Shown: positions 40,027 through 60,213, counted from the stretch's first letter. The stretch: 64,000 nucleotides of DNA from Hanamia sp. (GCA_035532615.1 DATKQQ010000076.1:483-64482), one strand, 5' to 3'. Translations and numbers: made by a program. Notes: generated by a model from the sequence alone, not told the origin.

Positions 40027-41043
40027 TTATTCAAAAAATAATTTTATTATTTCATTTCCTTTATTTTGAAAAGCTACATGAGCCTTTTCTTTTAGTTTTT
40101 CCAGTTTTTGCTTGTTTGTCTCATCCAATTCAATAACACAAGTTTCGTCAAGTTCGGTCTCTATCCGTTTGTAGACGAAATTTGGCTTATGTCCTTCTTC
40201 CCGGTCTATTCCGTTTTGCAGTAAGCTGATTAAGTTCTGTACCAATTGAGATTGTCCTTGCATGAACAATTCTATCAAACGTTTACGGTTACTGCCCACC
40301 CAATATTTTAGTCCCCAATTATGACGATCACGTGCATCAACAAAATGTTGGTTACCTGTACCCAGTGAAAGCACTTGCAGTTCCGACAAATCCTTTTTGA
40401 ATGCTTTTTGTGCTTCGATAATGGTAAGCAGGGTAGGATTATTCGCGACAACTCCTCCGTCTACTTTATTGCTAAATGATTGTTCCATCCCATGTAGGTC
40501 CACATACTTTGTGGAATAAGGATCGAAGTAAGTGGGTGCAGCAGATGTTGCCATTGCTGCTTGGTAAGCCGGTATATGATAATCTCTGATAAATCTTGGA
40601 TGATAATCGTTCTTGAGAACTGAAGGCTTTCCCTGCATCAGGTCATAAATAGGAATACATACATTGGTTTTACAGTCTTTTAAAATCGGTTCTTCCCCAC
40701 CTTTTGCTTCTTTGAACTTATCCCGAATAAGATTTTCCAAATCATCCTGTTCATGAGCGGAGTAAAATATCTTGCCTAACAACGTTCTTTTGCGGCCAAA
40801 GATTTTTGAAGCATTATTAAAATATAAATCAACAATTTCCGCTGCTGGTATTCCCAGTGCAAGTGCAATTGCTATTATACCGCCAGTAGATGTGCCACCT
40901 ATCAATTGAAAGTTATCATAGATGCTGTATTTCTCTACGCCTCTAGCCTTTAATTGTGCTTCTATCAGAGCCAAAAACATAGCAGGGAATATTCCTCGAA
41001 TACCACCCCCATCTATCGTTAATATATTGAACTTCTTTTCCAT
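40027..41043 (-). CDS. Patatin-like phospholipase (CapV-like effector)
   Basis: Oxyanion DGGGIRG, nucleophile GTSTG, catalytic DGG. 338 aa. Confidence 0.9.
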   Translation of the reverse strand: MEKKFNILTIDGGGIRGIFPAMFLALIEAQLKARGVEKYSIYDNFQLIGGTSTGGIIAIALALGIPAAEIVDLYFNNASKIFGRKRTLLGKIFYSAHEQDDLENLIRDKFKEAKGGEEPILKDCKTNVCIPIYDLMQGKPSVLKNDYHPRFIRDYHIPAYQAAMATSAAPTYFDPYSTKYVDLHGMEQSFSNKVDGGVVANNPTLLTIIEAQKAFKKDLSELQVLSLGTGNQHFVDARDRHNWGLKYWVGSNRKRLIELFMQGQSQLVQNLISLLQNGIDREEGHKPNFVYKRIETELDETCVIELDETNKQKLEKLKEKAHVAFQNKGNEIIKLFFE

Positions 41044-41177
41044 TTTAACTTTGTCATTTTAACTCTAATCTCTACGATTAATATTTTTTGTATCTGAGAT
41101 TGAAGAACGGCACCTCCAAATTTTTTGATAATTCTTTTCTAAATATCCAACATAATTGTATCTATTGGTAATCAGAT

Positions 41178-41633
41178 CTATTTCTCATGGTCGTCTTGTT
41201 TTTTAGGTAAATTATCTTGCGGATGTATTCCACCACCAGTCCATTCACCAGTGCCCAACCATATTTCATAATGATACAACCATTCGTAAGCCCAAGGAAT
41301 TACAGTTGTTGCTAACAACATCGTTTTATTCCATTCCTTGCCATCAGGATAGTACAGGCACAAGCGTTGTTCTTTTTGGTCGTAACAATGGGGCAACTTT
41401 GTTTTTCCCTTGGCTAAAGGCAATGGCTTAGGATCTACTATATAAATCTTTGGAGGGCTGCTCAATTGATACATTAGTTTTATCTTATACAATCCACCTA
41501 AAGGAGATGGTGATATAGTGGATGTCCAGATCAACTGCCGATCATGCACAGTCTTTACCTTACCATCAATAAAGATGTGTCGTAAATTCATTGCTTGAAT
41601 TCCTATTGGTAATGGTTTAATCCTCCGGGCCAT
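41178..41633 (-). CDS. Stand-alone UBC/E2-like protein (Cap2-short-like)
   Basis: YKIKLMY..SSPPKIYIV..LPHCYDQKEQRLCLYYPDGKEW..IPWAYEWL follows the E2 fold pattern, with His and Cys spaced 10 residues apart. ATG at 41633 overlaps the cyclase stop by 17 nt; an alternative ATG is at 41591. Confidence 0.55.
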   Translation of the reverse strand: MARRIKPLPIGIQAMNLRHIFIDGKVKTVHDRQLIWTSTISPSPLGGLYKIKLMYQLSSPPKIYIVDPKPLPLAKGKTKLPHCYDQKEQRLCLYYPDGKEWNKTMLLATTVIPWAYEWLYHYEIWLGTGEWTGGGIHPQDNLPKKQDDHEK

Positions 41634-42861
41634 AAAAATTGTGTGGTTTAATTGCTTTAACAGCACCGGCAACAATACCGATCTTTGGATCAAATTGGTT
41701 TGCACCTTTTTCTGTTAACAATCTTTTGCGTTCGCCAATATTGCTGAACATCTTTTTAATTTCATTTTGACCGAAAGCATTTGAAAGGCTTTTGATAATG
41801 TTTTGTTGACCGTGTTGTCCCATTGCATTGGAAATATCCTCTTTCACTTTTTTTAACCAGTCCTGAAACTTTTTTTCTTTAGCAGGAGTTTCTCTCCACT
41901 TGTCAGCAAAGTTTTCAGCAGGATTAACAGGATTTTCCACGCATCTGTAATACTCTCTTGTTATCGGATCCTGCCTTTCTACAAGGAACAAATGCATCCT
42001 TTCAATTACACCTACTAGAGCTTCTAAAACGTTGGTTTCTTTCTGATATGCATACGCGGCTAGTGTAGTGATGATAATGGAAATAGGCTTCTCTTTATCG
42101 TCTTTGAAGATCATGTCCCGGTGGCGTTTTAGAATTTGTACAACTCTTTGCAACGGCATTTTTTCACCCTGGAATTTTGGTACTGGCTTTACAGCTTCAT
42201 TGAGTGAAAACAGCTTGACACCAGAAAATGTCGCCTGGTCGATAAACCATCTTGCATAACCAAAGGGGTTGCTCCTTAACCAGTATTCAGGTCTTCTTTC
42301 TGTTTCGTAATTATCTTCTTCCCTGTCAGTAATGCTGATTGCTAAGTGATCCACATCATTAATAGTGATATTTGAAAAAGCTTTCTCCAGCAGCACTGAA
42401 TAGCCAGAAGCAATAACTGCAGGCAATATATCCATATGGTACTGATCGTTCTTTTCAGAGTTTTCGCGGTATCTCAGCGTCCAGCATCTTCTGCCTTCTT
42501 CATCTAATAAGCTCTGATAGGTTTTGTGGTTTTCAATCTGGTCACCTACAATATCCTTCAAGTCCTTTTGGGTCCACCAATCTTTCTTGCCGGATAACTC
42601 ACAAACTAAATCAATATCCAAGTCCTGATTTTCGTCATAAGGACAGATTGTGGTACCCAACAAGAATGAACCCTGTGGCTTTATAGTAGGGTTATAGGGT
42701 TTTAATAATGATCCATCAGCACAAAGCCAACTACCAACTGCTTTGTAACTTTTGACCGCGTTATTAAATTCTGTTTCAGAAATATCGAGGGCATTACCAA
42801 GTTCCTCCAGAATTTCGTTGAACTCGGTTTTTTGTTCTTTTGTAAGCATATTAAATGACAT
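41617..42861 (-). CDS. Pol-beta-fold nucleotidyltransferase, CD-NTase/SMODS-like (putative CBASS cyclase)
   Basis: G64-S65...D80-L-D82-I-D84 and D144 (HMDILP) give the GS/DxD/D triad. Also an N-terminal spine helix and a long helical C-terminal half. Confidence 0.7.
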   Translation of the reverse strand: MSFNMLTKEQKTEFNEILEELGNALDISETEFNNAVKSYKAVGSWLCADGSLLKPYNPTIKPQGSFLLGTTICPYDENQDLDIDLVCELSGKKDWWTQKDLKDIVGDQIENHKTYQSLLDEEGRRCWTLRYRENSEKNDQYHMDILPAVIASGYSVLLEKAFSNITINDVDHLAISITDREEDNYETERRPEYWLRSNPFGYARWFIDQATFSGVKLFSLNEAVKPVPKFQGEKMPLQRVVQILKRHRDMIFKDDKEKPISIIITTLAAYAYQKETNVLEALVGVIERMHLFLVERQDPITREYYRCVENPVNPAENFADKWRETPAKEKKFQDWLKKVKEDISNAMGQHGQQNIIKSLSNAFGQNEIKKMFSNIGERKRLLTEKGANQFDPKIGIVAGAVKAIKPHNFYGPED

Positions 42862-45123: not shown

Positions 45124-46695
45124 ATGGCCAAAACAACAAAGCAAAAAAAACAAAAATCTATTGAAGAAACACTGTGGGACAGTGCGAATAAATTAAGGGG
45201 TTCAGTTGAACCATCCGAATATAAGCATGTGGTTTTAGGACTTATATTTTTAAAGTTTGCCAGCGATAAGTTTGAAGAACGCAGGCAAGAATTGATTGTC
45301 GAAGGCAAAGAAAAGTATGTAGACATGGTGGAGTTTTACACCAGTAAAAATGTTTTCTACTTACCTGAAATTTCCCGGTGGAGTTATTTAATCGAAAATG
45401 CCAAACAAGATGACATTGCCATAAAAATTGATACGGCTCTTTTTACTGTTGAGAAAAATAATCCCGCTTTGAAAGGCGCCTTGCCCGACAATTATTATTC
45501 CCGAATGAGTTTGGATGTAAGCAAACTCGCTTCGTTGCTGGATACGATCAATAATATTAATACCCTTAAAGACAAAGAGCAGGACATTGTGGGAAGAGTA
45601 TATGAATACTTTCTCAGCAAGTTCGCTATTGCTGAAGGAAAAGGTAAAGGAGAATTTTATACGCCAAAGAGTATTGTAAACCTGATAGCTGAAATGATCG
45701 AACCTTACAAGGGGAAAATATATGACCCTTGTTGTGGTTCGGGTGGCATGTTTGTACAAAGTATGAAGTTCATTGAAAGCCATCATGGGAATAAAAAAGA
45801 TATTTCTATTTACGGTCAGGAAGCCATTACCACCACCTACAAACTGGCAAAGATGAATCTTGCCATTCGCGGTATTAGCGCAAATCTTGGCGATGTTGCA
45901 GAGAATACATTTTTCCGTGACCAGCACAAAGATTTGAAAGCCGATTATGTAATGGCTAATCCTCCTTTTAACCAGAAGCAATGGCGGGCAGACAATGAAC
46001 TCACCAGCGACCCAAGGTGGGCGGGCTATGAAGTGCCGCCAACGGGAAATGCCAACTATGCCTGGATTTTGAACATTGTGAGTAAGCTTTCTGAAAACGG
46101 AGTGGCTGGTTTTGTTTTGGCAAATGGCGCTTTATCAGGCGGAGGGACAGAATATGACATCCGGAAAAAGCTCATTGAAAATAATTTGGTGGAAGCTATT
46201 GTAGTGTTGCCACAGAATATGTTTTATACGACCAACATTAGCGTTACTCTTTGGTTTTTGAATAAAAATAAAAAAGAAAGAACTATTGAGCAAAACGGGA
46301 AGATTAAAAAATACCGCAACCGGGAAAGGGAAATACTCTTTATGGATTTAAGAGAAATTGGGATTCCATTTGAAAAAAAATACATCCAGTTTTCAGATGA
46401 TAATATCAAGCAGGTGACCGATACTTTTCACAATTGGCAACAAATCGGTTATGAAAATACTTATCAGAATACTCCGGAGTTTTGTTACAGTGCCTCATTT
46501 GAAGAAATAGAGAAAAAAGATTTTTCATTGGTACCCAGCAAGTACATTGAATTTGTAAACCGTGATGAGAATGTTGACTTTGATGAAAAGATGCAGGCCT
46601 TACAAAAAGAATTTGCCGATTTGCTGAAAGCAGAAGATCAATCAAAAAAAGATTTGCTAACCGTATTTAAAGAACTGGGTTATGAAATTGAATGA
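45124..46695 (+). CDS. hsdM: Type I restriction-modification system methyltransferase subunit
   Basis: HsdM N-terminal domain (LWDSANKLRG), SAM motif DPCCGSGGMF and catalytic NPPF. Start moved to MAKTTKQ. Confidence 0.9.
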   Translation: MAKTTKQKKQKSIEETLWDSANKLRGSVEPSEYKHVVLGLIFLKFASDKFEERRQELIVEGKEKYVDMVEFYTSKNVFYLPEISRWSYLIENAKQDDIAIKIDTALFTVEKNNPALKGALPDNYYSRMSLDVSKLASLLDTINNINTLKDKEQDIVGRVYEYFLSKFAIAEGKGKGEFYTPKSIVNLIAEMIEPYKGKIYDPCCGSGGMFVQSMKFIESHHGNKKDISIYGQEAITTTYKLAKMNLAIRGISANLGDVAENTFFRDQHKDLKADYVMANPPFNQKQWRADNELTSDPRWAGYEVPPTGNANYAWILNIVSKLSENGVAGFVLANGALSGGGTEYDIRKKLIENNLVEAIVVLPQNMFYTTNISVTLWFLNKNKKERTIEQNGKIKKYRNREREILFMDLREIGIPFEKKYIQFSDDNIKQVTDTFHNWQQIGYENTYQNTPEFCYSASFEEIEKKDFSLVPSKYIEFVNRDENVDFDEKMQALQKEFADLLKAEDQSKKDLLTVFKELGYEIE

Positions 46696-47722
46696 AATGG
46701 CAAACAGCAGTTTTGTTTCCGATATAAAACAAATTCTTGATCAGGCAAGACAAAAAGCCTATTCCGCTATCAATGTTGCAATGGTAGAAGCCTATTGGTT
46801 TGTTGGCAAAAAAATTGTGGAGCAGGAGCAACAAGGACAACAGCGTGCAGGATATGGACAATCCCTGATAAAAGAATTATCCAAAGTTTTAACACTGGAT
46901 TTTGGAAAAGGGTTTTCCGAAACAAACATTCGCAGCTTTCGCCTGTTTTATCTCACATTCCCTGAATATCTTTCAATTCAGCAGACACTGTCTGCTAAAT
47001 TGAGTTGGTCTCACTTTCAATTAATTATGAGGGTGTCAAACCTCAATGCACGGGCTTATTACCTCAAAGAAGCCGCTGACAATGGGTGGTCCGTTCGCAC
47101 TTTAGACAGAAATATTTCAACCCTTTATTACGACAGGCTACTACTTTCACAAAAAGAAGAACCCGTAAAGGATGAAATGATAGAAAAAACAAAAAAACTG
47201 CAACAGGATAAATTTGAGTTTATCAAAAATCCATCAGTGTTAGAATTTTTAAACCTTCCTGCCAATACCGGTTACACAGAATCTGAATTGGAAAGTGCAT
47301 TGATCAATAATCTGCAAAATTTTATACTGGAATTAGGTAAAGGTTTTGCCTTTGTAGAACAACAACAATTGATAAGAACGGAAACCAGGGATTATTTTAT
47401 TGATATGGTGTTTTATAATTATTTGCTCAAATGCTTTGTACTCATTGATTTAAAAACATCACGAATAAGCCACGAAGACGTGGGGCAAATGGATATGTAT
47501 GTACGCATGTATGATGAACTTAAAAAAAGCGCTGATGATAACCCCACGCTTGGCATTGTGCTGTGTACAGAAACCGACCAGGATATCGCCCGATATTCTA
47601 TTTTGAAAGGAAACGAACAAATATTTGCCACTAAATACAAATTATTTTTACCTACCGAAGAAGAATTGAGAACCGAAATTGAACGGGGAAAATTAGTACT
47701 GAAATTACAATTTGATAAATAA
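46682..47722 (+). CDS. DUF1016/YhcG-like PD-(D/E)xK nuclease
   Basis: GFAFVEQQQLIRTETRDYFIDMVFYNYLLKCFVLIDLK is the DUF1016 nuclease core. The first four codons, MKLN, are identical to those of hsdS. Confidence 0.8.
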   Translation: MKLNEMANSSFVSDIKQILDQARQKAYSAINVAMVEAYWFVGKKIVEQEQQGQQRAGYGQSLIKELSKVLTLDFGKGFSETNIRSFRLFYLTFPEYLSIQQTLSAKLSWSHFQLIMRVSNLNARAYYLKEAADNGWSVRTLDRNISTLYYDRLLLSQKEEPVKDEMIEKTKKLQQDKFEFIKNPSVLEFLNLPANTGYTESELESALINNLQNFILELGKGFAFVEQQQLIRTETRDYFIDMVFYNYLLKCFVLIDLKTSRISHEDVGQMDMYVRMYDELKKSADDNPTLGIVLCTETDQDIARYSILKGNEQIFATKYKLFLPTEEELRTEIERGKLVLKLQFDK

Positions 47723-47744
47723 GAGTTGGGTTATGAAATTAAAT
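47723..47744 (+). other. Scar: second copy of the hsdM-3'/hsdS-5' junction
   Basis: GAGTTGGGTTATGAAATTAAAT compared with 46672-46693 GAACTGGGTTATGAAATTGAAT (19/22). It reads ELGYEIKL*, a second HsdM C-terminus. Confidence 0.75.
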
Positions 47745-48977
47745 TATAAAAAGATTGGGGATCATATTCGTTTAGTTGATGAACGAAATACGGGCCTAAA
47801 AGTGAAATCACTTTTAGGTTTAAGTATTTCAAAACAATTCATTCCTTCTGTTGCAAATATTATCGGTACTGATATGGAGAATTATAAAATCATTCGCAAA
47901 AATCAGTTCGCCTGTAGCACCATGCAGGTAAGAAGAGATAAAAAAATGCCTGTTGCTTTATTGCAGGAAGTTGATGAAGCAATTATTTCCGCTGCATACC
48001 CCGTATTTGAAATTAAAGACAACAAAGAACTTTTACCCGAATATTTAATGATGTGGTTTAGCCGCGTGGAGTTTGATCGTGAAGCTTGTTTTTATGCCAT
48101 TGGCGGCGTACGTGGAAGTTTGGAGTGGGAAGATTTTTGCGATATGAAATTACCGATTCCAAAACCCGACAAACAAAAAAAAATTGTAAAAGAATACAAC
48201 ACCATTGTAAACCGCATTACACTCAACAACCAACTCATTCAAAAATTAGAAGAAACAGCGCAGGCAATTTACAAGCAATGGTTTGTTGATTTTGAATTTC
48301 CTGATGAAGAGGGGAAGCCTTATAAAAGTAATGGCGGTAAATTGGATTGGAATGAGGAGTTGGGAAAGGAAATTCCGAAGGGGTGGGAAGTGAAATCTTT
48401 AAAATCACTTTGCTCAAAAATTGGAAGCGGCGCAACGCCTAAAGGGGGAAAGGAAAGTTATCATAAAACCGGGGTTTCACTTGTTAGGAGTATGAATGTA
48501 CATGATTACATCTTTTCAACCGAAGACTTGGCTTTTATAAATGATAAACAAGCAAAAGCACTTGAAACAGTTTCCCTCGTAAAACACGATATTCTTCTTA
48601 ACATCACGGGTGTGTCAGTCGCACGGTGTTGTATGGTTCCCGAATTTGTTTTGCCGGGCAGAGTTAATCAACACGTAATGATAATTCGACCAAGGGAAGA
48701 ATATCATTTGTCGCATTATTTGCTTTGTCTTCTTTGTTACTCTGATAGTAAGTCAAAGTTGCTTGGCATTAGTCAATCAGGGTCTACAAGAGAAGCTATA
48801 ACCAAAATGGAAATTGAAGAATTTAAAGTCATTAAGCCTGAAAAATTGACATTAAAATCGTTTGATCAAAAACTTAAAGTTCTTCTCAGAACCATTGAAG
48901 TTGAAATACAGAATAATATTAGACTAAATGAATTGCAGAATCTCCTTCTCTCAAAACTTGCAACTTTAGAAAATTAA
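47733..48977 (+). CDS. hsdS: Type I restriction-modification system specificity subunit
   Basis: Two target-recognition halves separated and followed by conserved helical spacers. ATG at 47733 preferred over the TTG at 47712. Confidence 0.85.
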   Translation: MKLNYKKIGDHIRLVDERNTGLKVKSLLGLSISKQFIPSVANIIGTDMENYKIIRKNQFACSTMQVRRDKKMPVALLQEVDEAIISAAYPVFEIKDNKELLPEYLMMWFSRVEFDREACFYAIGGVRGSLEWEDFCDMKLPIPKPDKQKKIVKEYNTIVNRITLNNQLIQKLEETAQAIYKQWFVDFEFPDEEGKPYKSNGGKLDWNEELGKEIPKGWEVKSLKSLCSKIGSGATPKGGKESYHKTGVSLVRSMNVHDYIFSTEDLAFINDKQAKALETVSLVKHDILLNITGVSVARCCMVPEFVLPGRVNQHVMIIRPREEYHLSHYLLCLLCYSDSKSKLLGISQSGSTREAITKMEIEEFKVIKPEKLTLKSFDQKLKVLLRTIEVEIQNNIRLNELQNLLLSKLATLEN

Positions 48978-48981
48978 TAGC

Positions 48982-51900
48982 ATGGAAAATAAATTTAGTA
49001 AGGGTGCTGAATGGCGTAAATGGGACCTACATGTTCATACTCCAAAATCAATTTATCAAAAGTTTGGTATTGATGATGATGCAACGTGGGAAGAATATTT
49101 AACTGATTTAGAATCTCTGAGTGATGACTATGCAGTTTTGGGCATTAACGATTATTTATTCATTGATGGATATGAAAAGCTTATTCATGAACAAAAAGTA
49201 AATAACCGGTTACAAAAGTTGAAATTACTCCCTGTTTTAGAATTTCGAATTGAAAAATTTGCTGGTATTGATTTTCAAAATTTGAAGCGAATTAATCTTC
49301 ATGTAATTTTTTCTGACGAATTGAATATTGAGACAATTAAAAGTCAATTTTTAAATACTCTGGAACAACACTACTATTTGGAGAAAGATCATAGTAGGTG
49401 GGCCAGAGCGATAACTCGGGAAAGTGTTGAGGAGTTAGGTGCAAAACTTAAAGAAACTGTCCCACCTGAAGAATTGAAGAAATTTGAAGATAACATTACC
49501 GAGGGGTTCAATAATTTAAATGTAAAGGAGGATCAAATTTTTGAATCTCTAAAAAAAGATTGCTTCAAGGACAAATATTTAATTGCTATCGGAAAAACAG
49601 AGTGGGCCGATTTAAAATGGACTGAGGCATCAATTGCTACTAAAAAATCAATCATCAACCAAGCGGACATTGTATTTACGGCTTCTCAATCGTATGAAGC
49701 GTTTAATAATGCCAAGAACCAACTGACAAAGCAAGAAGTGAATAATTTACTACTTGATTGTAGTGATGCACATTATTTATCGTCTCATACTGATAAAGAT
49801 AGAATTGGAAATTGTTTTACTTGGCTTAAAGCGGATCCGACTTTTGAAGGGCTCAAACAAATTATCAACGAACCGGAAGGTCGAATATTCATTGGAGAAA
49901 CACCTCCTATAAGAACTAAGGTTCAAGATAATAGAACTAAATATATTAAAAGCATTTCCATTAAAGGAGTAAATGGCTATGATGGTAGATATGGTAAGTG
50001 GTTTAACGACATTGTAATACCATTAAATCATGAGTTAGTAGCTATCATTGGTAACAAAGGAAGTGGCAAAAGTGCAATTTCCGACATAATCGCCTTATGC
50101 GGATTTTATAAAAATCAAGAACATTTTTCTTTTTTGAATAAGAAAAAATTTAGAGATGGCAAACATGCAAAGAATTTCGAAGCAATATTAACATGGGAAA
50201 GCGAAAATACAAATCCGAAGAATTTGGCAGATGAAAAAACGGAAGGTGAAATTGAACTGGTAAAATATTTACCTCAAGGGTATTTTGAAAAGTTGACAAA
50301 CGAAATAAGCTCAACAGAAGAATTTCAGAAAGAAATAGAAAATGTTGTTTTTACACATTTAGATAATGATGATAAAGTTGGCTTTAATTCCTTTGAAGAT
50401 TTAATTGAATCAAAAAAGAAGCTAGCTGAAAAAGATATAACTCTTTTAAAAGAAGATAATAATGAATTAAATACAAATATTATTAAGTTAGAAAATAAAC
50501 TTAACGCTAAGTATAAAAAAGAAATACAAAATAAAATTCAATTGAAGAAGGACGCACTTGCCGCTTTAATTGAGCCAATACCTGTTATAGATCCAAACAC
50601 TGATTCAGTGATAGCAGAATTTAATCAAATATCACTCAATAAAATAAAAGGAATAAAAAGTGAGATTGAAGTTTTAGAAGCAGAGATCAATTCAATTCAA
50701 ACTAAAAAACAAATTATACTTATAGAATTAAGAGAGCTTAAAGAGTTAAAGCAAGATATTAATTTCAAAATAAATGATATTGAAGAATTCAAAAATCAAA
50801 ATAAAGAGATTTGTATAAAATATTCTTTGCCTCTTGATGAATTAATATCAGTCTCTGAAAATATATCCACATTAAAAACTGTTATTGAAACTAAAGAATC
50901 AACACTTACAGATTTTAAGATAGTGCTTGGTGAACAAGAAAGCGGAGTCTCAGAGTATAAATCGGCTAAGAGTGCATTAATTGATTTGCAAAAGGCACTT
51001 CAAGAAGAACAAAATAAATTAGATGGACCTCAAAAGGCATTTCAAATTTATCTCGCTGAAAAGAAAAACTGGGAGGAGAAAAAAAATAAAATTATCGGTA
51101 CAAGATATATCTCTGATAGTTTAACATTCTTTGAATTCGAATTAAAATATTTGGAAGAATCCCTTTCCACTGAAATTGATGTATTACGGGAAAAACGTTT
51201 AGGCATAGCTGAAAAAATCTTTAACAAAAAGCAGCAAATAATATCTGTTTACAAAGATGTAAAACAAAAATTAGATTTAATAATTGGTTCCAATGCCGAT
51301 TTATTAAATAAATATAAAATAGATATTAATGCTGCATTGTCATTATCAAGTTCCTTTTCTGAGATCTTTTTCAGAAATATTAATCAAGGAGTATTAGGAA
51401 CATTTTACTCAATCGAAGGCGGGGTCGCTGAACTAAATAAAATTAAACAAGATGCCAATTTTGATAATTTTGAGAATACTAAATTGTTTTTAAATAATTT
51501 AAATGAATCTATTCATATTGACCAACGAGATAAATATGGAAAAGAAAAAAGGTACATAGATGAACAAATTAAAAATCCATTAGAGCTTTACAATTACTTA
51601 TATTCCATTGAATTTTTAGATTATAATTATCAATTAATGCAAGGGTCAAAAACATTGCAACAATTATCACCTGGCGAAAAAGGGGCTTTGTTATTGGTTT
51701 TTTATTTACTTCTTGATAAAAATGATATTCCCTTAATAATAGACCAGCCCGAAGATAATTTAGATAACAACAGTGTAGCTCACATACTCGTTCCATTTAT
51801 TCGTAATGCCAAAAGTAAAAGACAAATAATTTTGGTGACGCATAATCCTAACCTTGCAATTGTTTCAGATGCGGAACAAGTAATTTATGTTAACCTTGAT

Positions 51901-52047
51901 AAAGAAAAGGACAATGAATTTACTTTCATTTCAGGAAGCATAGAGAATAGAACAGTCAATGATTGTATTGTCAAAGTTTTAGAAGGTGCTATGCCAGCTT
52001 TTAATAAAAGAAAGCAAAAGTATTACGAAGAATTTATTCAAAAATGA
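48982..52047 (+). CDS. PHP-domain phosphoesterase fused to a coiled-coil ABC/SMC-like ATPase
   Basis: WDLHVHTPKS (PHP), Walker A GNKGSGKSA, about 450 aa of K/E/N-rich coiled coil, signature LSPGEKGAL, Walker B LIIDQPEDNLD, and VTHNPN. Confidence 0.75.
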   Translation: MENKFSKGAEWRKWDLHVHTPKSIYQKFGIDDDATWEEYLTDLESLSDDYAVLGINDYLFIDGYEKLIHEQKVNNRLQKLKLLPVLEFRIEKFAGIDFQNLKRINLHVIFSDELNIETIKSQFLNTLEQHYYLEKDHSRWARAITRESVEELGAKLKETVPPEELKKFEDNITEGFNNLNVKEDQIFESLKKDCFKDKYLIAIGKTEWADLKWTEASIATKKSIINQADIVFTASQSYEAFNNAKNQLTKQEVNNLLLDCSDAHYLSSHTDKDRIGNCFTWLKADPTFEGLKQIINEPEGRIFIGETPPIRTKVQDNRTKYIKSISIKGVNGYDGRYGKWFNDIVIPLNHELVAIIGNKGSGKSAISDIIALCGFYKNQEHFSFLNKKKFRDGKHAKNFEAILTWESENTNPKNLADEKTEGEIELVKYLPQGYFEKLTNEISSTEEFQKEIENVVFTHLDNDDKVGFNSFEDLIESKKKLAEKDITLLKEDNNELNTNIIKLENKLNAKYKKEIQNKIQLKKDALAALIEPIPVIDPNTDSVIAEFNQISLNKIKGIKSEIEVLEAEINSIQTKKQIILIELRELKELKQDINFKINDIEEFKNQNKEICIKYSLPLDELISVSENISTLKTVIETKESTLTDFKIVLGEQESGVSEYKSAKSALIDLQKALQEEQNKLDGPQKAFQIYLAEKKNWEEKKNKIIGTRYISDSLTFFEFELKYLEESLSTEIDVLREKRLGIAEKIFNKKQQIISVYKDVKQKLDLIIGSNADLLNKYKIDINAALSLSSSFSEIFFRNINQGVLGTFYSIEGGVAELNKIKQDANFDNFENTKLFLNNLNESIHIDQRDKYGKEKRYIDEQIKNPLELYNYLYSIEFLDYNYQLMQGSKTLQQLSPGEKGALLLVFYLLLDKNDIPLIIDQPEDNLDNNSVAHILVPFIRNAKSKRQIILVTHNPNLAIVSDAEQVIYVNLDKEKDNEFTFISGSIENRTVNDCIVKVLEGAMPAFNKRKQKYYEEFIQK

Positions 52048-52154
52048 AATTCAACGAAGACACATTAGAGCAAGCCGTTATTGAATTATATGAAGCGAAA
52101 AAAATACAAAACCAATATGTGTCCGGTTTTTTAGTAAATAAATCAGCATTTTAA
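52044..52154 (+). pseudogene. Remnant of an hsdR 5' end (36 codons)
   Basis: MKFNEDTLEQAVIELYEAKK... compared with the resident HsdR MKFTEETLEQAVIELFETQQ. 38/45 nt are identical by hand alignment. It starts in an ATGA overlap with the preceding stop codon. Confidence 0.7.
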
Positions 52155-53507
52155 ATGAAGTCAGAAACCAATCGGATAGAATACAAACAAGAACTCACCG
52201 ATGATTTGGAGAAAGAAATAATTGCTTTCCTGAATTATCATGAAGGCGGTTTGATCTATATTGGTATTCATAAATCGGGCAAAGCGATAGGCATAAAGGA
52301 TGCCGATGCAATACAATTAAAAATCAAAGACCGGCTTAAGCACAATATTTTGCCTTCCTGTTTGGGTTTGTTTGATATAGTATTGGAAGAGCGGGAAGAA
52401 AAAGAAATTATTAAAATCATTATAGCCAGCGGCCCTGAGAAGCCGTATCATCTTAGAAAATACGGCATGTCTGAAAAAGGGGCGTATATCCGCGTGGGTA
52501 GTGCCAGCGAACCAATGCCTGCCAAAATGATTGAAACTCTTTTTGCCAAAAGAACCCGCAATTCTATTGGCAGGATACAATCCAACCAACAAAAATTAAA
52601 GTTTGAACAGTTAAAAATTTATTATAACGAGGCCGGCAAAAAATTAAACTCCCAGTTTGCCGCTAACCTGGAGCTCTTAACCCAGGATGGTAAATATAAT
52701 TATGTGGCATTCCTGATGTCCGATGTAAACAGCCTCTCCATTAAAGTGGCGAAATATAAAGGGCTTACCAGGGTTGATCTGGTAGAGAATAATGAATATG
52801 GGTATTGTTCCCTTATCAAAGCAGCCAAGCAGGTATTGGATAAAATGGAATTAGAGAATAAAACCCTTGCCAAAATAACTTCAAAGGAAAGGGAAGAAAA
52901 AAGGTTATGGAATGCAATTGCATTGCGTGAGGCCATCATAAATGCTATTGTACATAATGACTATACAAACGAGGTACCACCTAAGTTTGAATTGTTTGCG
53001 GATAGGATAGAAATTACTTCGGCAGGTAGTTTACCGGATGGATTAAGCCGGGACGAATTTTTTGAAGGGTATTCTGTTCCCCGCAACCAGGAGATCATGC
53101 GCATCTTTAAGGACCTGGATTTGGTGGAGCATTTGGGTTCCGGAGTACCGCGTATTTTAGAAAGCTACGGAAAAGATTGCTTTACCTTTTCCGACAATTT
53201 TTTAAGAATGACTTTCCCCGCTGCAGGACCAGTCACCGATCAAGTCACCATGCAAGATACCATGCAAGTCACCATGCAAGTCACCATGCAAGTCAAAAAC
53301 TTAATTGATGTTTTGGAAAATGAGATGGATAGGCAGGAATTGCAAAAGAGGTTAAACCTTTCTAATAGAGATAATTTTAGAAAAAATTATTTAAAACCGG
53401 CTTTAGAACAGGGATTAATAGAAATGACCCTTCCTGAGAAACCCAACAGTCGTTTGCAAAAATACCGCCTGACAAAAAAGGGAATGAGCGTAAAACAAAG
53501 TCAATGA
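52155..53507 (+). CDS. AlbA_2 (Schlafen-like) DNA-binding / HATPase_c_4 / wHTH protein
   Basis: N-terminal NRIEYKQEL...FLNYHEGGLIYIG, a central AIINAIVHNDY motif, and a C-terminal winged-helix-like tail. Confidence 0.7.
   Translation: MKSETNRIEYKQELTDDLEKEIIAFLNYHEGGLIYIGIHKSGKAIGIKDADAIQLKIKDRLKHNILPSCLGLFDIVLEEREEKEIIKIIIASGPEKPYHLRKYGMSEKGAYIRVGSASEPMPAKMIETLFAKRTRNSIGRIQSNQQKLKFEQLKIYYNEAGKKLNSQFAANLELLTQDGKYNYVAFLMSDVNSLSIKVAKYKGLTRVDLVENNEYGYCSLIKAAKQVLDKMELENKTLAKITSKEREEKRLWNAIALREAIINAIVHNDYTNEVPPKFELFADRIEITSAGSLPDGLSRDEFFEGYSVPRNQEIMRIFKDLDLVEHLGSGVPRILESYGKDCFTFSDNFLRMTFPAAGPVTDQVTMQDTMQVTMQVTMQVKNLIDVLENEMDRQELQKRLNLSNRDNFRKNYLKPALEQGLIEMTLPEKPNSRLQKYRLTKKGMSVKQSQ
53229..53296 (+). 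repeat. In-frame 12-bp tandem repeat (CAAGTCACCATG)n inside the AlbA_2 gene
   Basis: Units at 53241, 53253 (two substitutions), 53265 and 53277, plus degenerate flanking units. Encodes VTDQVTMQDTMQVTMQVTMQV. Confidence 0.9.
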
Positions 53508-53551
53508 AATTCAATGAAGACACATTAGAGCAGGCAGTGATCGAATTTTAA
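53504..53551 (+). pseudogene. Second remnant of an hsdR 5' end (15 codons)
   Basis: MKFNEDTLEQAVIEF*. 37/45 nt are identical to the resident hsdR start. It again begins in an ATGA overlap with the preceding stop. Confidence 0.7.
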
Positions 53552-53562
53552 ACAATTAAAAA

Positions 53563-53829
53563 ATGGAACAATCAAACAGCGAAATAATCATTTACCAAAA
53601 CCCTGACGACAACATCAAAATAGATGTAAGGTTAGAGGAGGAAACTGTGTGGCTTACCCAGGTCCGGATGGCTGAATTATTTGGGAAAGCGAGAACCACG
53701 ATTACCGAACATATTCAAAATGCTTTTGAGGAAGGAGAACTGGACGAAAATGTGGTGTGTCGAAATTTCCGACATACCACTCAACATGGTGCTATTGCAG
53801 GGAAAACACAGGAAAAATCTGCAATGTAA
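53563..53829 (+). pseudogene. RhuM-family N-terminal fragment
   Basis: IIIYQNPDDNIKIDVRLEEETVWLTQVRMAELFGKARTTITEHIQNAFEEGEL is the RhuM N-terminus. The ORF stops after 88 codons, well short of what I recall as a several-fold longer full-length family. Confidence 0.55.
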
Positions 53830-53939
53830 TTTGAAAAATATAAAATTGCCCAAATACAAATTGAAAAGGAAGAAAGTTTAAAAGAAATTGAGGTAGATAT
53901 AAAAAAATTGAAAAAAATTACCAAACGCAAATAAGTGAA

Positions 53940-56900
53940 ATGAAATTCACCGAAGAAACATTAGAACAGGCGGTGATTGAGTTATTTGAAACTCAACAAA
54001 TACCTCATGTGCATGGCGAAACCATACACAAGGAAATGTCTGATGTGCTGATTCGGGAAGATTTGAAAAACTTTTTGTTGAATCAATATAGTGATGATGA
54101 TATTACGCTGAATGAAATTGATGGTATTATCCGACAGTTAGATTTGTACCCAAGCTCGGCTTTATATGAAAGTAACAAAGCCATCATGAAATTGATCGCA
54201 GATGGGTTTACGTTAAAGCGGGAAGACAGAAATAAGAAAGATCTTTTTATTCATTTAATAGATTTTAGAACTTTAGGAAATATTCAAAAAGAAGAAGCGA
54301 ATAATGAAATAGGCCTTGCAGCAGAGCCGGAAGCAGTTTACCAAACCAAAGACAATAACATTTATAAAATCGTCAATCAACTGGAAATAGCTGGTTACGA
54401 GAAACGAATACCCGATGGTATTGTTTACATCAACGGTTTGCCATTGGTAGTGATTGAATTTAAAACTGCAGTTAAGGAAAACTGTACCATTAAAGATGCT
54501 TTCACCCAGTTAACCGTTCGTTACAAAAGAGATATTCCGGAACTTTTTAAATACAATGCATTTTGTGTTATCAGTGATGGCGTGAATAACAGAATGGGCT
54601 CCCTGTTTGCTCCTTACGATTTCTTTTACGCCTGGAGAAAAATAAACGATAGCGATGAACCATCGGATGGAATCAGTTCATTGCATACTATGATTGAGGG
54701 TCTATTTTATAAAGAGCGTTTGCTAAATGTTATCCGCAATTTTATTTATTTTCCTGATACATCAAAAGATGATATAAAAATTGTTTGCCGTTATCCGCAA
54801 TATTATGCAGCTAATAAATTATTTGAAAGTATCAGGGTAAATCAGCGGCCACACGGAAGCGGAAAAGGCGGCACTTATTTCGGTGCAACAGGTTCCGGCA
54901 AAAGTTTCACCATGTTATACCTGACACGTCTCCTGATGAAAAGCCCACACTTTGCAAGTCCAACTATTATATTGATAACAGACAGGACAGATTTAGACGA
55001 TCAGCTTTCCGCACAATTTACCAATGCAAAAACCTTTGTTGGTGATGAAAATGTAATAAGTGTGGAAACCCGTGAAGAACTGAAATCGCTTTTGCAAAAC
55101 AGGAACAGCGGCGGTGTGTTTCTCACCACCATTCATAAGTTTACAGAAAGCACTGAACTACTAACCCAAAGAACGAATGTAATTTGTATTTCAGATGAGG
55201 CCCACCGATCACAAATTAACCTTGACCAAAAAATAAAAATCACAGCTAAAGGAGTTGAACGAAAATATGGATTTGCCAAATACCTACATGATTCATTACC
55301 TAATGCTACTTACGTTGGTTTTACAGGAACACCTATTGATGGTACGTTAGATGTATTTGGTAAAGTAGAAGATGCATACACCATGAAAGAATCTGTAGAG
55401 GATGGAATCACTGTAAGAATTGTATATGAAGGGCGTGCAGCAAAAGTGTCACTGAATGAAGAAAAGCTGAAACAGATAGAAGAGTATTATAAACAATGTG
55501 CTGTTGAAGGAACCAATGAATATCAAATTGAGGAAAGTAAAAAAGCGGTCACGCAAATGGAAGTCATTTTAGGTGACCCCAAACGCCTCAAATTAGTAGC
55601 AGTAGATTTTATTGAACATTACGAAAAAAGAATTGAAGAAGGCGCCAGTGTTAAGGGTAAAGTTATGTTTGTATCCATCAGCAGGCCTATTGCTTATGAT
55701 TTGTATAAAGAAATTATTGCCTTGCGGCCGGAGTGGGCAGAAATAAGAGATTGCGAGGAAGGTGCAGAACTCACTGAAGAAGAGAAGAAAAAACTAAAGC
55801 CGATTGAAAAAATAAAGATGGTAATGACCAGGCATAAGGATGATCCTAAAATCATGTATGACATGCTTGGCACGAAGGAAGATAGAAAGGAACTGGACCG
55901 TCAATTTAAAAATGCAAAATCAAATTTCAAGATAGCAATGGTCGTGGATATGTGGCTTACCGGTTTTGATGTGCCGTTTCTGGAAACGATTTATATTGAT
56001 AAACCAATAGAGCAACATTCTTTGATACAAACCATTTCAAGAGTTAACCGGGTTTATGAAGGCAAGGAAGTAGGTTTAGTTGTTGATTATGTGGGCATCA
56101 AAAACAATATGAACCTTGCTTTGGCAAAATATAGTAAGGTAAGTGAAGACGATTTTGAAGACATTGACAAAGCAGTTGTGTTAGTAAAAGATCAACTGGA
56201 TTTATTGGCAAAGCTTTTTCATAACTTCAATACAACTGATTATTTCAATGGAACTCCGTTACAAAAATTAGATTGCCTGAATCGTGCTGCTGAATATGCT
56301 CAGGTTACTGATGAGTTAGAGAAGCGGTTTGTAGAAATGGTAAAAAAACTCCGTTCCGCTTATGACTTGTGTTGCTCAAGTGAAGATATTAGCGAAGAAG
56401 AAAGAGACCATATTCATTTTTACTTTGCCATTAAAGCCATCATCCATAAACTAACAAAAGGTGATGCACCGGATACAGCCCAGATGAATAATCGTGTTAG
56501 AAAAATGATAGAAGAAGCCTTAATAAGTGATGGCGTAGAGGAAATATTTAAGCTTGATAAAAACGATCCTAAAAACAATGCAGATATATTCAGTGATGAA
56601 TATATGGCGAAGATTGATAAAATAAAACTGCCGAATACCAAAATAAAGTTGTTGCAAAAATTGCTTTCCAAAGCAATTGATGATTTTAAAAAGATCAACA
56701 GAATTAAAGGAATAGATTTTTCTAAGAAGCTTAAAAAGCTGGTAGAAGTTTATAATGAACGGAAAGATTTTGATGTATTTCAAAGTCATGTTTTAGACGA
56801 TGTTGCAGAACAATTTGCCAACCTGTTTAAAGACCTGCAAAAGGAACGAAACTCTTTCATGGATTTAGGAATTGATTTTGAAGAAAAAGCATTTTATGAT

Positions 56901-57161
56901 ATCCTGAAAGCTATTGCGCAGAAATACAATTTTGAATATCCTGAAGATAAATTAATTAAACTATCGCAAGAAGTTAAGAAGATAGTTGACGAGAAAGCAA
57001 GATATACGGATTGGGCAAACAGGGATGATATTAAAGCAGAATTAAAAGTTGACCTGATCTTAGTTCTTGCAGAAAATGAATATCCACCTGTACCGAAAGA
57101 TGAAGTGTTTAAAGAGATATTTGAGCAGGCGGAGAATTTTAAGAAGTATAGTGGGGTATAA
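53940..57161 (+). CDS. hsdR: Type I restriction-modification system endonuclease/helicase subunit
   Basis: 1073 aa. Walker A GATGSGKSF, DEAH box ISDEAHRSQ and helicase motif QTISRVNR. Confidence 0.9.
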   Translation: MKFTEETLEQAVIELFETQQIPHVHGETIHKEMSDVLIREDLKNFLLNQYSDDDITLNEIDGIIRQLDLYPSSALYESNKAIMKLIADGFTLKREDRNKKDLFIHLIDFRTLGNIQKEEANNEIGLAAEPEAVYQTKDNNIYKIVNQLEIAGYEKRIPDGIVYINGLPLVVIEFKTAVKENCTIKDAFTQLTVRYKRDIPELFKYNAFCVISDGVNNRMGSLFAPYDFFYAWRKINDSDEPSDGISSLHTMIEGLFYKERLLNVIRNFIYFPDTSKDDIKIVCRYPQYYAANKLFESIRVNQRPHGSGKGGTYFGATGSGKSFTMLYLTRLLMKSPHFASPTIILITDRTDLDDQLSAQFTNAKTFVGDENVISVETREELKSLLQNRNSGGVFLTTIHKFTESTELLTQRTNVICISDEAHRSQINLDQKIKITAKGVERKYGFAKYLHDSLPNATYVGFTGTPIDGTLDVFGKVEDAYTMKESVEDGITVRIVYEGRAAKVSLNEEKLKQIEEYYKQCAVEGTNEYQIEESKKAVTQMEVILGDPKRLKLVAVDFIEHYEKRIEEGASVKGKVMFVSISRPIAYDLYKEIIALRPEWAEIRDCEEGAELTEEEKKKLKPIEKIKMVMTRHKDDPKIMYDMLGTKEDRKELDRQFKNAKSNFKIAMVVDMWLTGFDVPFLETIYIDKPIEQHSLIQTISRVNRVYEGKEVGLVVDYVGIKNNMNLALAKYSKVSEDDFEDIDKAVVLVKDQLDLLAKLFHNFNTTDYFNGTPLQKLDCLNRAAEYAQVTDELEKRFVEMVKKLRSAYDLCCSSEDISEEERDHIHFYFAIKAIIHKLTKGDAPDTAQMNNRVRKMIEEALISDGVEEIFKLDKNDPKNNADIFSDEYMAKIDKIKLPNTKIKLLQKLLSKAIDDFKKINRIKGIDFSKKLKKLVEVYNERKDFDVFQSHVLDDVAEQFANLFKDLQKERNSFMDLGIDFEEKAFYDILKAIAQKYNFEYPEDKLIKLSQEVKKIVDEKARYTDWANRDDIKAELKVDLILVLAENEYPPVPKDEVFKEIFEQAENFKKYSGV

Positions 57162-58963: not shown

Positions 58964-59515
58964 ATGTTTCTCAATATTATTCATCTTGCTCAAAGGGTTG
59001 ACAGATTGCAACTCTTAAAAGATGAAATTGCAACTCAAAAAATTAGCAACTTTAAAATGTGGGAAGGAGTTGTTGATAATACACTTACCAGACGAGGGAT
59101 TTCCAGAGCACATAAAAATATTATCAGGCATGCTAAATTGCAAGGGTCTCAATCGGTTTTAATTGGTGAAGATGATTTGCATTTTACGGCTCCCGGTGCA
59201 TTCAATTTTTATCTTGCAAATATCCCGGATGATTTTGATATCTATTTGGGAGGTATTGTCTATGGAAATATAGACGAAAACAATTTGACAACTGATTTTT
59301 CAGGGACTACGCTTTATATTATTCATGAACGTTTTTATGATCAAATGCTGGCATTGCCGGAAGATCAGCATATCGACCGGGCACTGCGGAATTGCGGTAA
59401 ATTTGTGGTATGCAACCCCATGGCCGTTATTCCGCACAATGGTTATAGCGATAACAGAAAGCGGTATGTCGATTATGAGCCATATTTTAATGGAAAAAAT
59501 TTATTTAATGGCTAA
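58964..59515 (+). CDS. Glycosyltransferase family 25-like protein
   Basis: N-terminal IIHLAQRVDRLQLL resembles the GT25 INL..R.DR signature. 183 aa. Confidence 0.5.
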   Translation: MFLNIIHLAQRVDRLQLLKDEIATQKISNFKMWEGVVDNTLTRRGISRAHKNIIRHAKLQGSQSVLIGEDDLHFTAPGAFNFYLANIPDDFDIYLGGIVYGNIDENNLTTDFSGTTLYIIHERFYDQMLALPEDQHIDRALRNCGKFVVCNPMAVIPHNGYSDNRKRYVDYEPYFNGKNLFNG

Positions 59516-60213
59516 GAATTGTCATCCTTTCCAGGAGATGCTATTTCTTTCATGTTATTTATAATATAGTCGACAGCCGGAGGTGAACTTGTGGCGGTGT
59601 GCGCATAAATCCATTCCTCAATATTAGGGTTGTCTAAAAATGATGCAAATTCTTCTGCTAGGTAACCCCGAAGAGAAAGGCTTGCTGTTTTAATTTCGCT
59701 CCAAATGGAATCCCGGTTATCGAGTACAAATATAAGATCTTCAAAGTCATGACTTAAACGACCATCGCCACTTCCACGGTTTTTAAACGCTTCAATCTTT
59801 GTGGCGATGAAATATTCTGCCGGCAATATTTTGATTTTGGTGGTTTCATCAATCTCAAAGTCAACCGAAGCTTTGAAACCTTCTTCATACCATTTATTAG
59901 CAAATCCTAAAATTTCAGGAGATGTGGGCATTAAGTCAACTATGATATCTCCAAGAATATAACGGCCCAGAAATTTTGCGTTCATATCATTTACAAAACC
60001 TAATTGCCTCACTCTTTCTTCAAGATCAGCGAAGTCCCACCGGCTCCATATTTCGACAAGTATGTCCACGTCTTTTGTTGGACGAACTTCCTCAGCCATC
60101 CTTTCCGCATAAAGAGATACAGTAGCTCCCCCTACAAAAACCATGTTGTCTTTAAGTGTCTCAAGAGCACTTTTTACTTCTTTGATGCGGCTAATATTAA
60201 CACTATGGCTCAT
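59512..60213 (-). CDS. Pol-beta-fold nucleotidyltransferase, AbiEii-like
   Basis: FVGGATVSLYAERMAEEVRPTKDVDILV matches the GG..l.ly...R.T.D.D motif. 4-nt ATGA overlap with the upstream gene. Confidence 0.55.
   Translation of the reverse strand: MSHSVNISRIKEVKSALETLKDNMVFVGGATVSLYAERMAEEVRPTKDVDILVEIWSRWDFADLEERVRQLGFVNDMNAKFLGRYILGDIIVDLMPTSPEILGFANKWYEEGFKASVDFEIDETTKIKILPAEYFIATKIEAFKNRGSGDGRLSHDFEDLIFVLDNRDSIWSEIKTASLSLRGYLAEEFASFLDNPNIEEWIYAHTATSSPPAVDYIINNMKEIASPGKDDNS

Follow-up and report, generated by a model that had tools for sequence, protein, structure and literature searches.

Remnants of hsdR 5' ends and a duplicated hsdM/hsdS junction among the accessory genes of a type I restriction-modification operon from Hanamia sp.

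A stretch of 64,000 nucleotides from Hanamia sp. (GCA_035532615.1 DATKQQ010000076.1:483-64482), analyzed as a whole and called the window hereafter, contains a type I restriction-modification (R-M) operon that is interrupted by accessory genes in the order hsdM, DUF1016, hsdS, TrlF, remnant 1, AlbA2, remnant 2, RhuM pseudogene and hsdR (Table 1). The two remnants are short copies of the hsdR 5' end, and DUF1016 is enclosed by two copies of the hsdM/hsdS junction. The genes hsdM, hsdS and hsdR are all present, intact and co-oriented with full-length family matches, hsdS has two target-recognition domains according to PADLOC, and judged by these features the operon is functional-looking. Similar remnants recur in related loci from several phyla, and the question considered here is how they were formed and what they reveal about the acquisition of defence genes by type I operons.

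Duplicated hsd junctions in the window

The start of hsdR recurs at remnant 1 (38/45 nt identical) and remnant 2 (37/45 nt), as the initial annotation of the sequence had reported, and in both cases an ATGA is shared by the remnant start codon and the stop codon of the gene before it. A repeat search recovered the hsdR start as a three-copy family of 66 nt, and a degenerate 44-nt pattern of this start matched only these three places in the window and none in shuffled sequences. Homology of remnant 1 to hsdR extends to approximately nt 64–66 (52/64), and the window remnants are 82–87% identical to the resident hsdR. Comparison with two close relatives (loci L082 and L084) shows remnant 1 to be a decayed copy (approximately 40 nt lost) of a 134-nt remnant that precedes AlbA2 there. 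In close relatives the same remnants reach 134–188 nt of hsdR coding sequence, which confirms that they are real hsdR and not a generic leader motif. Unitigs from three soil metagenome runs span both TrlF-remnant-AlbA2 (48800–52248) and AlbA2-remnant-RhuM-hsdR (53471–54200) with 0 differences. An assembly artefact is therefore unlikely, and a chimera was rejected as the explanation, given that non-hsdR sequence follows the remnant, unlike in a repeat collapse, and that independent assemblies and unitigs agree.

The upstream side of remnant 1 has its own particularities. The TrlF C-terminus carries five extra codons (EFIQK, 52030–52047) that run into the ATGA of remnant 1, whereas its homologues end in KRKQKYYE; this read-through beyond the usual terminus shows the junction to be a secondary fusion. 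In L084 a JAB gene of a cyclic-oligonucleotide-based anti-phage signalling system (CBASS) ends in NFQK on the same TTCAAAAATGAAATTC sequence as the window TrlF end, and the common block before remnant 1 may start approximately 7–15 nt 5' of the remnant ATG. Soil runs X1–X3 also contain a second, commoner variant (depth ~28–35 versus 13–15) with a different sequence before ~52049 (ending in CAAATTAGGTTTACCATCAATATAAATACG), another upstream neighbour joined at the remnant; this variant skips 33 nt (52097–52129).

The junction copies around DUF1016 (GAACTGGGTTATGAAATTGAAT for copy 1 and GAGTTGGGTTATGAAATTAAAT for copy 2) match at 19/22 positions. At three mismatches or fewer, only these two matches were found in the 64-kb window and 0 in 100 shuffles, and the repeat noticed in the initial annotation is therefore non-random. 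Copy 1 provides the DUF1016 ATG at 46682, and copy 2 reads ELGYEIKL followed by a stop, the canonical HsdM C-terminus of the family, and holds the hsdS ATG; the DUF1016 and hsdS open reading frames (ORFs) share the start MKLN. The second HsdM C-terminus, its supply of the hsdS ATG and the shared MKLN start had likewise been described correctly. In compact relatives the canonical junction consists of ELGYEIKL and its stop overlapping the M-K-S-N-Y-K of hsdS, so that it is the present hsdM end (ELGYEIE) that has been altered, the copy behind DUF1016 having the canonical form. Where the window and L082 have junction-DUF1016-junction, L084 and L087 show one hsdM/hsdS junction and no DUF1016. The repeat measures 22–24 nt in the window; in L026 it is 30 nt long, and there an independent junction duplication (29/30), again of the local target, surrounds DUF1016 with a junction sequence quite different from that of the window. 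A profile scan for further hsdM/hsdS junction duplications returned only the window/L082 lineage, the L026 case having been spotted by eye. DUF1016 occupies the hsdM/hsdS slot without a clear repeat in L048 and L073, and it is located downstream of hsdR (13430–14449) in L087.

The initial annotation counted four accessory genes between the hsd genes, and the identity of two of them can be refined: the "PHP-ATPase" is a TrlF-family ATPase and the fourth gene is a RhuM pseudogene. The TrlF protein passed the TrlF_fam_ATP model (634 bits, cut-off 350) and did not pass the Ppl_antiphage model (104 bits, cut-off 1000), which makes it a relative of the Ppl anti-phage protein and not a member. AlbA2 is a gene commonly embedded in type I R-M operons. 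DUF1016 and the RhuM fragment match the PADLOC embedded phage-defence candidates PDC-S02 (E=2e-136) and PDC-S05 (E=3e-32), respectively. The RhuM pieces comprise an 88-codon N-terminal ORF (53563–53829) and the last ~124 nt of the gene (53811–53934), leaving the window copy short by ~640 nt (an internal deletion) with respect to the intact 342-aa RhuM gene of L082. The blastn blocks against L082 (52043–53824 and 53811–57162) overlap by 14 nt at 53811–53824, as if short direct repeats had recombined to delete the sequence between them. In hsdS, the second target-recognition domain (about 48404–48944) has no DNA similarity to L082, although the rest of hsdM-DUF1016-hsdS is 91% identical; this is a specificity-domain swap between close relatives. 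Additionally, AlbA2 contains a 12-nt tandem repeat encoding VTDQ/VTMQ/DTMQ (53231–53292), and in co-occurring strains of four runs 162–164 nt of the gene (53249–53414) are swapped for 153–155 unrelated letters; this region resembles a hypervariable linker leading to the winged-helix domain at the C-terminus.

The operon is bordered upstream by a CBASS-type pair on the minus strand (40027–42861), composed of a patatin-like phospholipase (40027–41043) and a SMODS/DncV-like cyclase (41617–42861), and downstream by an AbiEii-like gene (59512–60213, minus strand), which indicates that it sits in a defence island. Protein family matches revealed no recombinase, transposase or integrase among the 7 ORFs of the locus or 10 flanking ORFs, and no recombinase was found inside the operon in the gene tables of L082, L084 and L087.

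Table 1. Genes and junction features of the type I R-M operon, in coordinates of the window.
Feature	Coordinates	Strand	Basis or remark
hsdM (type I methyltransferase)	45124..46695	+	Pfam HsdM_N + N6_Mtase; PADLOC MTase_I
hsdM/hsdS junction copy 1, left direct repeat around DUF1016	46672..46693	+	junction profile model positions 1-52
DUF1016/YhcG PD-(D/E)XK nuclease gene	46682..47722	+	Pfam DUF1016_N + YhcG_C; PADLOC PDC-S02
hsdM/hsdS junction copy 2, canonical form	47723..47744	+	orphan HsdM C-terminus + hsdS start codon
hsdS (specificity subunit)	47733..48977	+	Pfam Methylase_S; PADLOC Specificity_I
TrlF-family ABC/SMC-like ATPase, 1021 aa	48982..52047	+	NCBIfam TrlF_fam_ATP; PADLOC Ppl
hsdR 5' remnant 1, 36-codon mini-ORF	52044..52154	+	hsdR homology ~64 nt, then decayed
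AlbA2: AlbA_2 (Schlafen-like) + HATPase_c_4 + Fic-like_C gene	52155..53507	+	Pfam
hsdR 5' remnant 2, 15 codons + stop	53504..53551	+	same remnant/junction before RhuM in L082, L002
RhuM-family pseudogene	53563..53934	+	PADLOC PDC-S05; blastn blocks vs L082
Intact hsdR (HSDR_N, SWI2_SNF2/ResIII, T1R_D3-like, T1RH-like_C)	53940..57161	+	Pfam; PADLOC REase_I 1227 bits; NCBIfam hsdR

Recurrence and turnover in related loci

A scan with HsdR, limited to one genome per species, led to 80 loci (64–85% identical) from Bacteroidota, Firmicutes, Proteobacteria, Planctomycetota, Spirochaetota and Methanosarcina. Approximately 15 of them are compact, with hsdS abutting hsdR, approximately 43 harbor an insert of 0.8–7 kb between hsdS and hsdR, and approximately 10 have something between hsdM and hsdS. 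Remnants, detected by tblastn with HsdR residues 1–50 and by a nucleotide profile of the first 75 nt, were found in 10 of these 80 loci (L002 and L026 with two each, L025, L057, L069, L070, L071, L075, L076 and L078), with weaker ones in L056 and L058. An independent metagenome sample gave remnants in 6 of 68 loci having more than 1.5 kb of upstream sequence (L131, L133, L136, L142 with two, L154 and L162), and the three closest relatives in the protein database (L082, L084 and L087, with HsdR 97, 94 and 93% identical) all possess them. Altogether, 28 hsdR 5' remnants of 17–188 nt were located in 22 of approximately 160 related loci from several phyla, always on the hsdR strand and upstream of an intact hsdR; at 13 of the 28 a long upstream ORF (at least 170 codons) ends in an ATGA overlap. 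The genes that follow the remnants belong to the familiar set of embedded defence genes, namely RhuM, AlbA2, AbiEi/AbiEii, DUF1016, GmrSD, Zeta toxin, PIN, GIY-YIG and M78/DUF4411, and stacked cassettes with remnants between them occur in L002, L026, L082, L084 and L142.

It had been proposed that AlbA2 or the supposed PHP-ATPase would be found elsewhere immediately before an intact hsdR. This is the case for AlbA2, which precedes an intact hsdR with an ATGA overlap in seven loci (L023, L047, L051, L059, L015, L093 and L162) and with a 1-nt TAATG overlap rather than ATGA in L068; TrlF directly against an intact hsdR was not found among the related loci. RhuM, AbiEii and hsdS also abut intact hsdR genes through ATGA overlaps elsewhere. 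Two loci (L015 and L093) carry TrlF-AlbA2-hsdR without a remnant, and in L090/L091 a trio of helix-turn-helix gene, TrlF and RhuM occurs with neither hsd genes nor an hsdR remnant.

The closest relatives show how variable the cassettes are. L082 consists of hsdM, DUF1016, hsdS, SIR2, DUF87 (HerA), 58 nt of an AlbA2 3' end, 134 nt of hsdR, AlbA2, 45 nt of hsdR, full-length RhuM and hsdR; its downstream TonB-receptor gene is 95.6% identical to that of the window, so that it appears to lie at the same chromosomal site. L084 consists of hsdM, hsdS, four CBASS genes, 134 nt of hsdR, AlbA2, 17–18 nt of hsdR joined to the C-terminal 164 codons of a second AlbA2, and hsdR, and L087 of hsdM, hsdS, helicase, GmrSD, 188 nt of hsdR, M78, DUF4411 and hsdR. 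Operons with 93–97% identical HsdR thus carry SIR2-HerA, CBASS or helicase-GmrSD-M78/DUF4411 cassettes and have in common with the window only AlbA2 (in two of the three) and RhuM (in one), which supports this side of the initial interpretation. AlbA2 and hsdR are uninterrupted in L084 (AlbA2 3' end) and in L023, at the place where the window and L082 carry 45 nt of hsdR and RhuM. The left edge of the variable zone is sharp and coincides with the hsdS stop codon, and the last 33 nt of hsdS are 93–97% conserved among the window and its close relatives. A strain-level comparison by exact AlbA2 protein look-up returned only the same arrangement.

L082, L084 and a sediment contig of run X4 share a block in which the 134-nt remnant ends at one common breakpoint and is followed by the spacer TAAATTAGATTTATTAA and AlbA2; the window has this block in decayed form. 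Its upstream neighbour differs: TrlF in the window, an AlbA2 3' stub behind SIR2-HerA in L082 and a CBASS JAB gene in L084. Similarly, the block of 45 nt of hsdR, ~12 nt and RhuM is common to the window, L082 and L002. What is conserved across loci is thus the remnant together with its downstream gene, and it is the upstream neighbour that is exchanged. Two side observations concern the same blocks. In L084 the 164-codon ORF (9510–10004) lies directly behind the full AlbA2 gene, starts with 17–18 nt of hsdR (MKFTEE), continues in frame into the C-terminal third of a second AlbA2 copy, and overlaps hsdR as ATGA. L002 contains a 101-nt direct repeat, 89% identical (6557–6656 and 7922–8021), composed of the 45-nt hsdR remnant and the first ~40 nt of RhuM, which flanks a decayed AlbA2 gene and two other ORFs; here the duplicated "target" already included an older scar.

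Breakpoints, allele history and competing explanations

The breakpoints of the remnants differ within each cassette family. They fall at ~29, 49, 55–63 and 64 nt in AbiEi/AbiEii cassettes, at 27, 32, 38–46 and ~36 nt (the last by profile; 15–16 by x-drop alignment) in RhuM cassettes, and at 23 and 134 nt in AlbA2 cassettes, with a composite of ~101 nt. Within one cassette family the sequence behind the breakpoint also varies among independent events. This variation favours repeated illegitimate joins and speaks against either an attC-like element or a site-specific enzyme. In the AbiEi/AbiEii cassettes of L025, L026, L076, L078, L136 and L142, the remnant is separated from the antitoxin gene by a perfect or near-perfect palindrome (such as TTGTCCAGTTTTTTGCGCAAAAAACTGGACAA) at a varying distance from the remnant end; it is presumably the AbiEi operator.

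The remnants that appear young are nearly identical to the hsdR of their own locus (83/84 and 54/55 in L026, 55/57 in L076, i.e., 96–99%), which indicates target duplication in place rather than import; the L087 remnant, counted with the youngest events, matches its resident at 171/188. The older history is less simple. Any two of 79 hsdR alleles share 31 ± 3.5 of 45 nt, and the window remnants share 37–38/45 with the resident and 35–40/45 with several other alleles, 45 nt being too short and too conserved for a tree. The 134-nt remnant of L084 is closer to the window resident hsdR (123/134, with the differences clustered at nt 1–36) than to its own (113/134), and at the orthologous junction of the X4 sediment contig the remnant is 131/131 identical to the window resident allele. 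Remnants and resident 5' ends thus have partly separate, mosaic histories and appear to recombine with hsdR alleles after formation, which neither proves nor excludes that some remnants were imported.

The duplications and the fact that they recur are observed directly, as are the variation in breakpoints, the empty sites, the turnover of cassettes and the mosaicism of alleles. The preferred explanation (probability of roughly 0.5) is recombinational insertion with long target duplication at the hsd junctions, the remnants serving later as homology patches. The recombination pathway, the order of events and any coupling role of the mini-ORFs are reconstructed as follows. Accessory defence genes would have landed more than once at the two internal gene junctions of one type I operon. 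The landing of DUF1016 would have left 22–24 nt of the hsdM/hsdS overlap at its flanks, that of AlbA2 the first ~134 nt of hsdR (now decayed) before AlbA2, and that of RhuM the first ~45 nt. The remnants would then be dead hsdR 5' ends, produced by integration of DNA carrying an accessory gene together with an hsdR start. This DNA would most probably come from another type I locus and bring its own hsdR start: the right-hand gene-ATGA-hsdR junctions match those at intact hsdR genes elsewhere, which makes another type I locus the simplest cassette source. On its right side the incoming DNA would engage in homologous recombination within hsdR, and its left end would be joined illegitimately or through microhomology to a point some tens of nt inside the resident hsdR; this would be one-sided-homology or break repair, with an insertion with long target duplication as its outcome. 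Successive events would stack the cassettes with the newest nearest hsdR, the remnant before the newest one being what is left of the hsdR start that was resident until then. At a later stage, short homology patches for replacing or adding upstream cassettes could be provided by the remnants and by the conserved final ~33 nt of hsdS, which would account for TrlF, CBASS and SIR2-HerA standing before one and the same remnant, and the remnants could be converted by hsdR alleles.

Several observations weigh against this explanation. No breakpoint is farther than 188 nt from the start codon, which a random illegitimate join does not predict; the clustering may reflect survivorship (long direct repeats rapidly deleting the insert) or a mechanistic bias. 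In the five closest loci, the remnants longer than 20 nt are all of an Asn4 type and the residents all of a Thr4 type, a split that needs an Asn4 ancestor with a later overwritten resident 5' end, or donors of one type. As a general rule this division was discarded, being broken by the X4 contig, and it holds for remnants longer than 20 nt in five assembled loci. In L069, the remnant and the resident differ at nt 1–42 and are nearly identical at nt 42–95, which a simple one-step model, with a left join at one point and a right crossover beyond it, does not fit and which would require an extra conversion step. The comparisons of empty and occupied sites are available at 83–93% identity and not between sister strains, and no sister pair with near-identical flanks was found to display the states before and after an hsdR 5' insertion. 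Finally, the sampled isolate genomes showed no clear remnant, all remnant-bearing genome loci being metagenome-assembled genomes, although the remnant junctions are reproduced in independent assemblies.

The initial annotation had proposed that each accessory gene was imported whole with the hsd junction that follows it and that such units were stacked as in an integron but without an integrase, so that a remnant would belong to its upstream neighbour. Junctions in which AlbA2, RhuM, AbiEii or hsdS meets hsdR through ATGA are indeed common, the upstream genes abut precisely, with an ATGA overlap at the 13 remnants counted above, the window remnants are ~15% diverged from the resident hsdR, and a foreign allele type is possible in a remnant. 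Nevertheless, the conserved junction in the window, L082, L084 and X4 is that between the remnant and its downstream gene, the upstream gene varies, and young remnants equal the resident allele; import with the preceding cassette is not supported. The rare Asn4 type behind five different upstream genes is improbable for independent imports, the breakpoints are not fixed, and no intact hsdR was found directly behind TrlF. The model is thus partly supported: it captures the origin of the incoming DNA but attributes the remnants to the wrong one of their two neighbours and makes too much of the likeness to an integron, and as a whole it is unlikely.

Campbell-type traffic, in which a repeat-flanked cassette loops out as a one-copy circle and re-integrates by a single crossover into an hsdR 5' end or a remnant, is also a rather poor candidate, in spite of an architecture that is exactly repeat-cassette-repeat. 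RecA-dependent recombination has a lower limit of repeat length, and the repeats (~27–190 nt) are near it; remnant-gene units are shared between different contexts, and the 101-nt composite repeat of L002 (remnant and RhuM 5' end) encloses an AlbA2 block. On the other hand, such traffic leaves the origin of the first duplication without explanation, and it predicts hybrid copies that differ over their full length when donor and recipient differ, in disagreement with L069 and with the window/L084 mosaic. No joined (excised) form was seen in contigs of four runs, where contigs hide rare variants.

A history of collapse, in which former tandem gene-hsdR units or whole operons suffered internal deletions that left only the first hsdR nucleotides, is improbable. 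It would accommodate the fusion of 17–18 nt of hsdR to AlbA2 in L084, which resembles a deletion joint between two AlbA2-hsdR units, the 58 nt of AlbA2 3' end retained before the 134-nt remnant of L082, and the internal deletion in the window RhuM. However, neither a long hsdR fragment nor a second full hsdR, the intermediates expected, was found upstream of an intact hsdR in the ~160 loci (longest remnant, 188 nt), and every deletion would need to end within the first 190 nt. It is very improbable that the hsdR-like mini-ORFs are relays kept for translational coupling of the upstream gene to the inserted one, since, although the remnant ATG is mostly kept in an ATGA overlap with the upstream stop, and in 14 of 16 promoterless cassettes the mini-ORF stop falls in the interval from 20 nt upstream of the next ATG to 8 nt within that gene (the gaps are 16–187 nt, mostly above 60, in the own-operator AbiEi/AbiEii and M78/DUF4411 cassettes), remnant lengths and sequences vary, the ATG is lost or internal stops occur in some remnants (L071 and L075), a nearby stop is expected anyway in AT-rich out-of-frame sequence, and a function would account for retention but not for origin.

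A broader proposition, which is tentative and rather doubtful, is that hsdR 5' fragments and duplicated hsdM/hsdS overlaps constitute a general recombinase-free cassette system with portable homology arms and possibly relay ORFs. If true, such a system would allow type I operons in many phyla to gain defence genes, stack them and exchange them with expression of the operon kept, and would provide a mechanistic explanation for the frequent "embedding" of defence genes. Embedding in R-M, bacteriophage exclusion (BREX) and related operons is now used for discovering new immune systems. The junction scars are in any case a concrete, countable footprint of acquisition events. They indicate that genes were acquired repeatedly and without mobile-element enzymes, followed by rapid cassette exchange, and, if the order of events given above is correct, directionally, with new genes placed beside hsdR. 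In practice, the border between genes that were acquired independently of one another can be recognized by a short hsdR-start ORF within a type I operon, and the scars make the mechanism testable in competent bacteria.

Comparison with known systems

Insertion with long target duplication and without a mobility gene has been documented for R-M units (Nobusato et al., 2000; Furuta, Abe and Kobayashi, 2010, PMC2853133). The direct repeats are tens to hundreds of bp long, variable in length and single-copy at the empty site, and the phenomenon is associated with R-M loci and, for the most part, with bacteria capable of natural competence (PMC2853133). The repeats described here exceed 30 bp at the hsdR 5' end (38–64 nt in the window, 130–134 nt in L082/L084, 188 nt in L087 and 84 nt in L026), whereas the DUF1016 repeat of the window (22–24 nt) is below that threshold (PMC2853133). 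Single-copy empty sites are found in relatives at 83–93% identity (L084 and L087 for hsdM/hsdS, L084 and L023 for AlbA2-hsdR), and the inserts contain DUF1016, AlbA2, RhuM, AbiEi/AbiEii, Zeta, PIN, GIY-YIG and GmrSD only, with no mobility gene. Unlike the original class, these inserts are non-R-M defence genes and not whole R-M systems, and the target is always the hsdR 5' end or the hsdM/hsdS overlap, hit repeatedly, whereas in the original class the R-M unit lands anywhere in the genome.

A one-sided homologous anchor combined with an illegitimate join is also said to characterize homology-facilitated illegitimate recombination during natural transformation, a process that would place foreign genes beside a conserved gene. 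In its classical form the recipient DNA beside the anchor is reportedly replaced or deleted and not duplicated; here, by contrast, part of the anchor (hsdR) itself is duplicated. Serial cassettes that displace older modules with no dedicated recombinase are reported for the orphan toxin-immunity arrays downstream of rhs and cdiA genes, where each displaced module is said to stay in the array and to keep a short conserved-gene fragment usable as homology for later recombination, in the form of 3' core pieces upstream of displaced toxin tips from the same gene family. Unlike these arrays, the fragments described here are hsdR 5' ends and the cassettes are unrelated stand-alone genes that remain expressed within the operon.

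The likeness to an integron lies in the ordered, co-oriented promoterless cassettes, the newest presumably beside a fixed landmark, with short repeats between them. The initial view of an integron-like stacking without an integrase remains accurate in that stacking recurs and no IntI tyrosine-recombinase integrase exists in or next to the locus (7 locus and 10 flanking ORFs). It fails in that there is no fixed site, the breakpoints ranging from 17 to 188 nt, and the repeats are hsdR coding fragments and not attC sites.

The closest parallel is the embedding of defence genes in type I R-M, BREX, DISARM (defence island system associated with restriction-modification) and Hma operons (Payne et al., 2024, bioRxiv 10.1101/2024.01.29.577857), of which PrrC in EcoprrI is an example. 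As in those systems, accessory defence genes are co-oriented between hsd genes, two families defined by embedding (PDC-S02 and PDC-S05) are matched by DUF1016 and the RhuM fragment, and TrlF/Ppl-like, CBASS, SIR2-HerA, GmrSD and AbiE genes occupy the same slot in relatives. Payne et al. (2024) catalogue embedded genes with no mention of recombination or remnants, state that the significance "remains to be explored" and give as the only account of embedding the "genomic sink" idea (Makarova et al., 2011). Embedding in type I operons and long target duplications around inserted R-M units are therefore already known. A literature search, with subscription journals outside its scope, revealed no earlier description of hsdR 5' remnants, stacked as scars between embedded genes, and no report of repeated targeting of the hsdR 5' end and the hsdM/hsdS overlap or of a later role of the scars in cassette exchange. 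Unlike the catalogue of embedded genes, the junction duplications presented here are a footprint of the insertion process itself.

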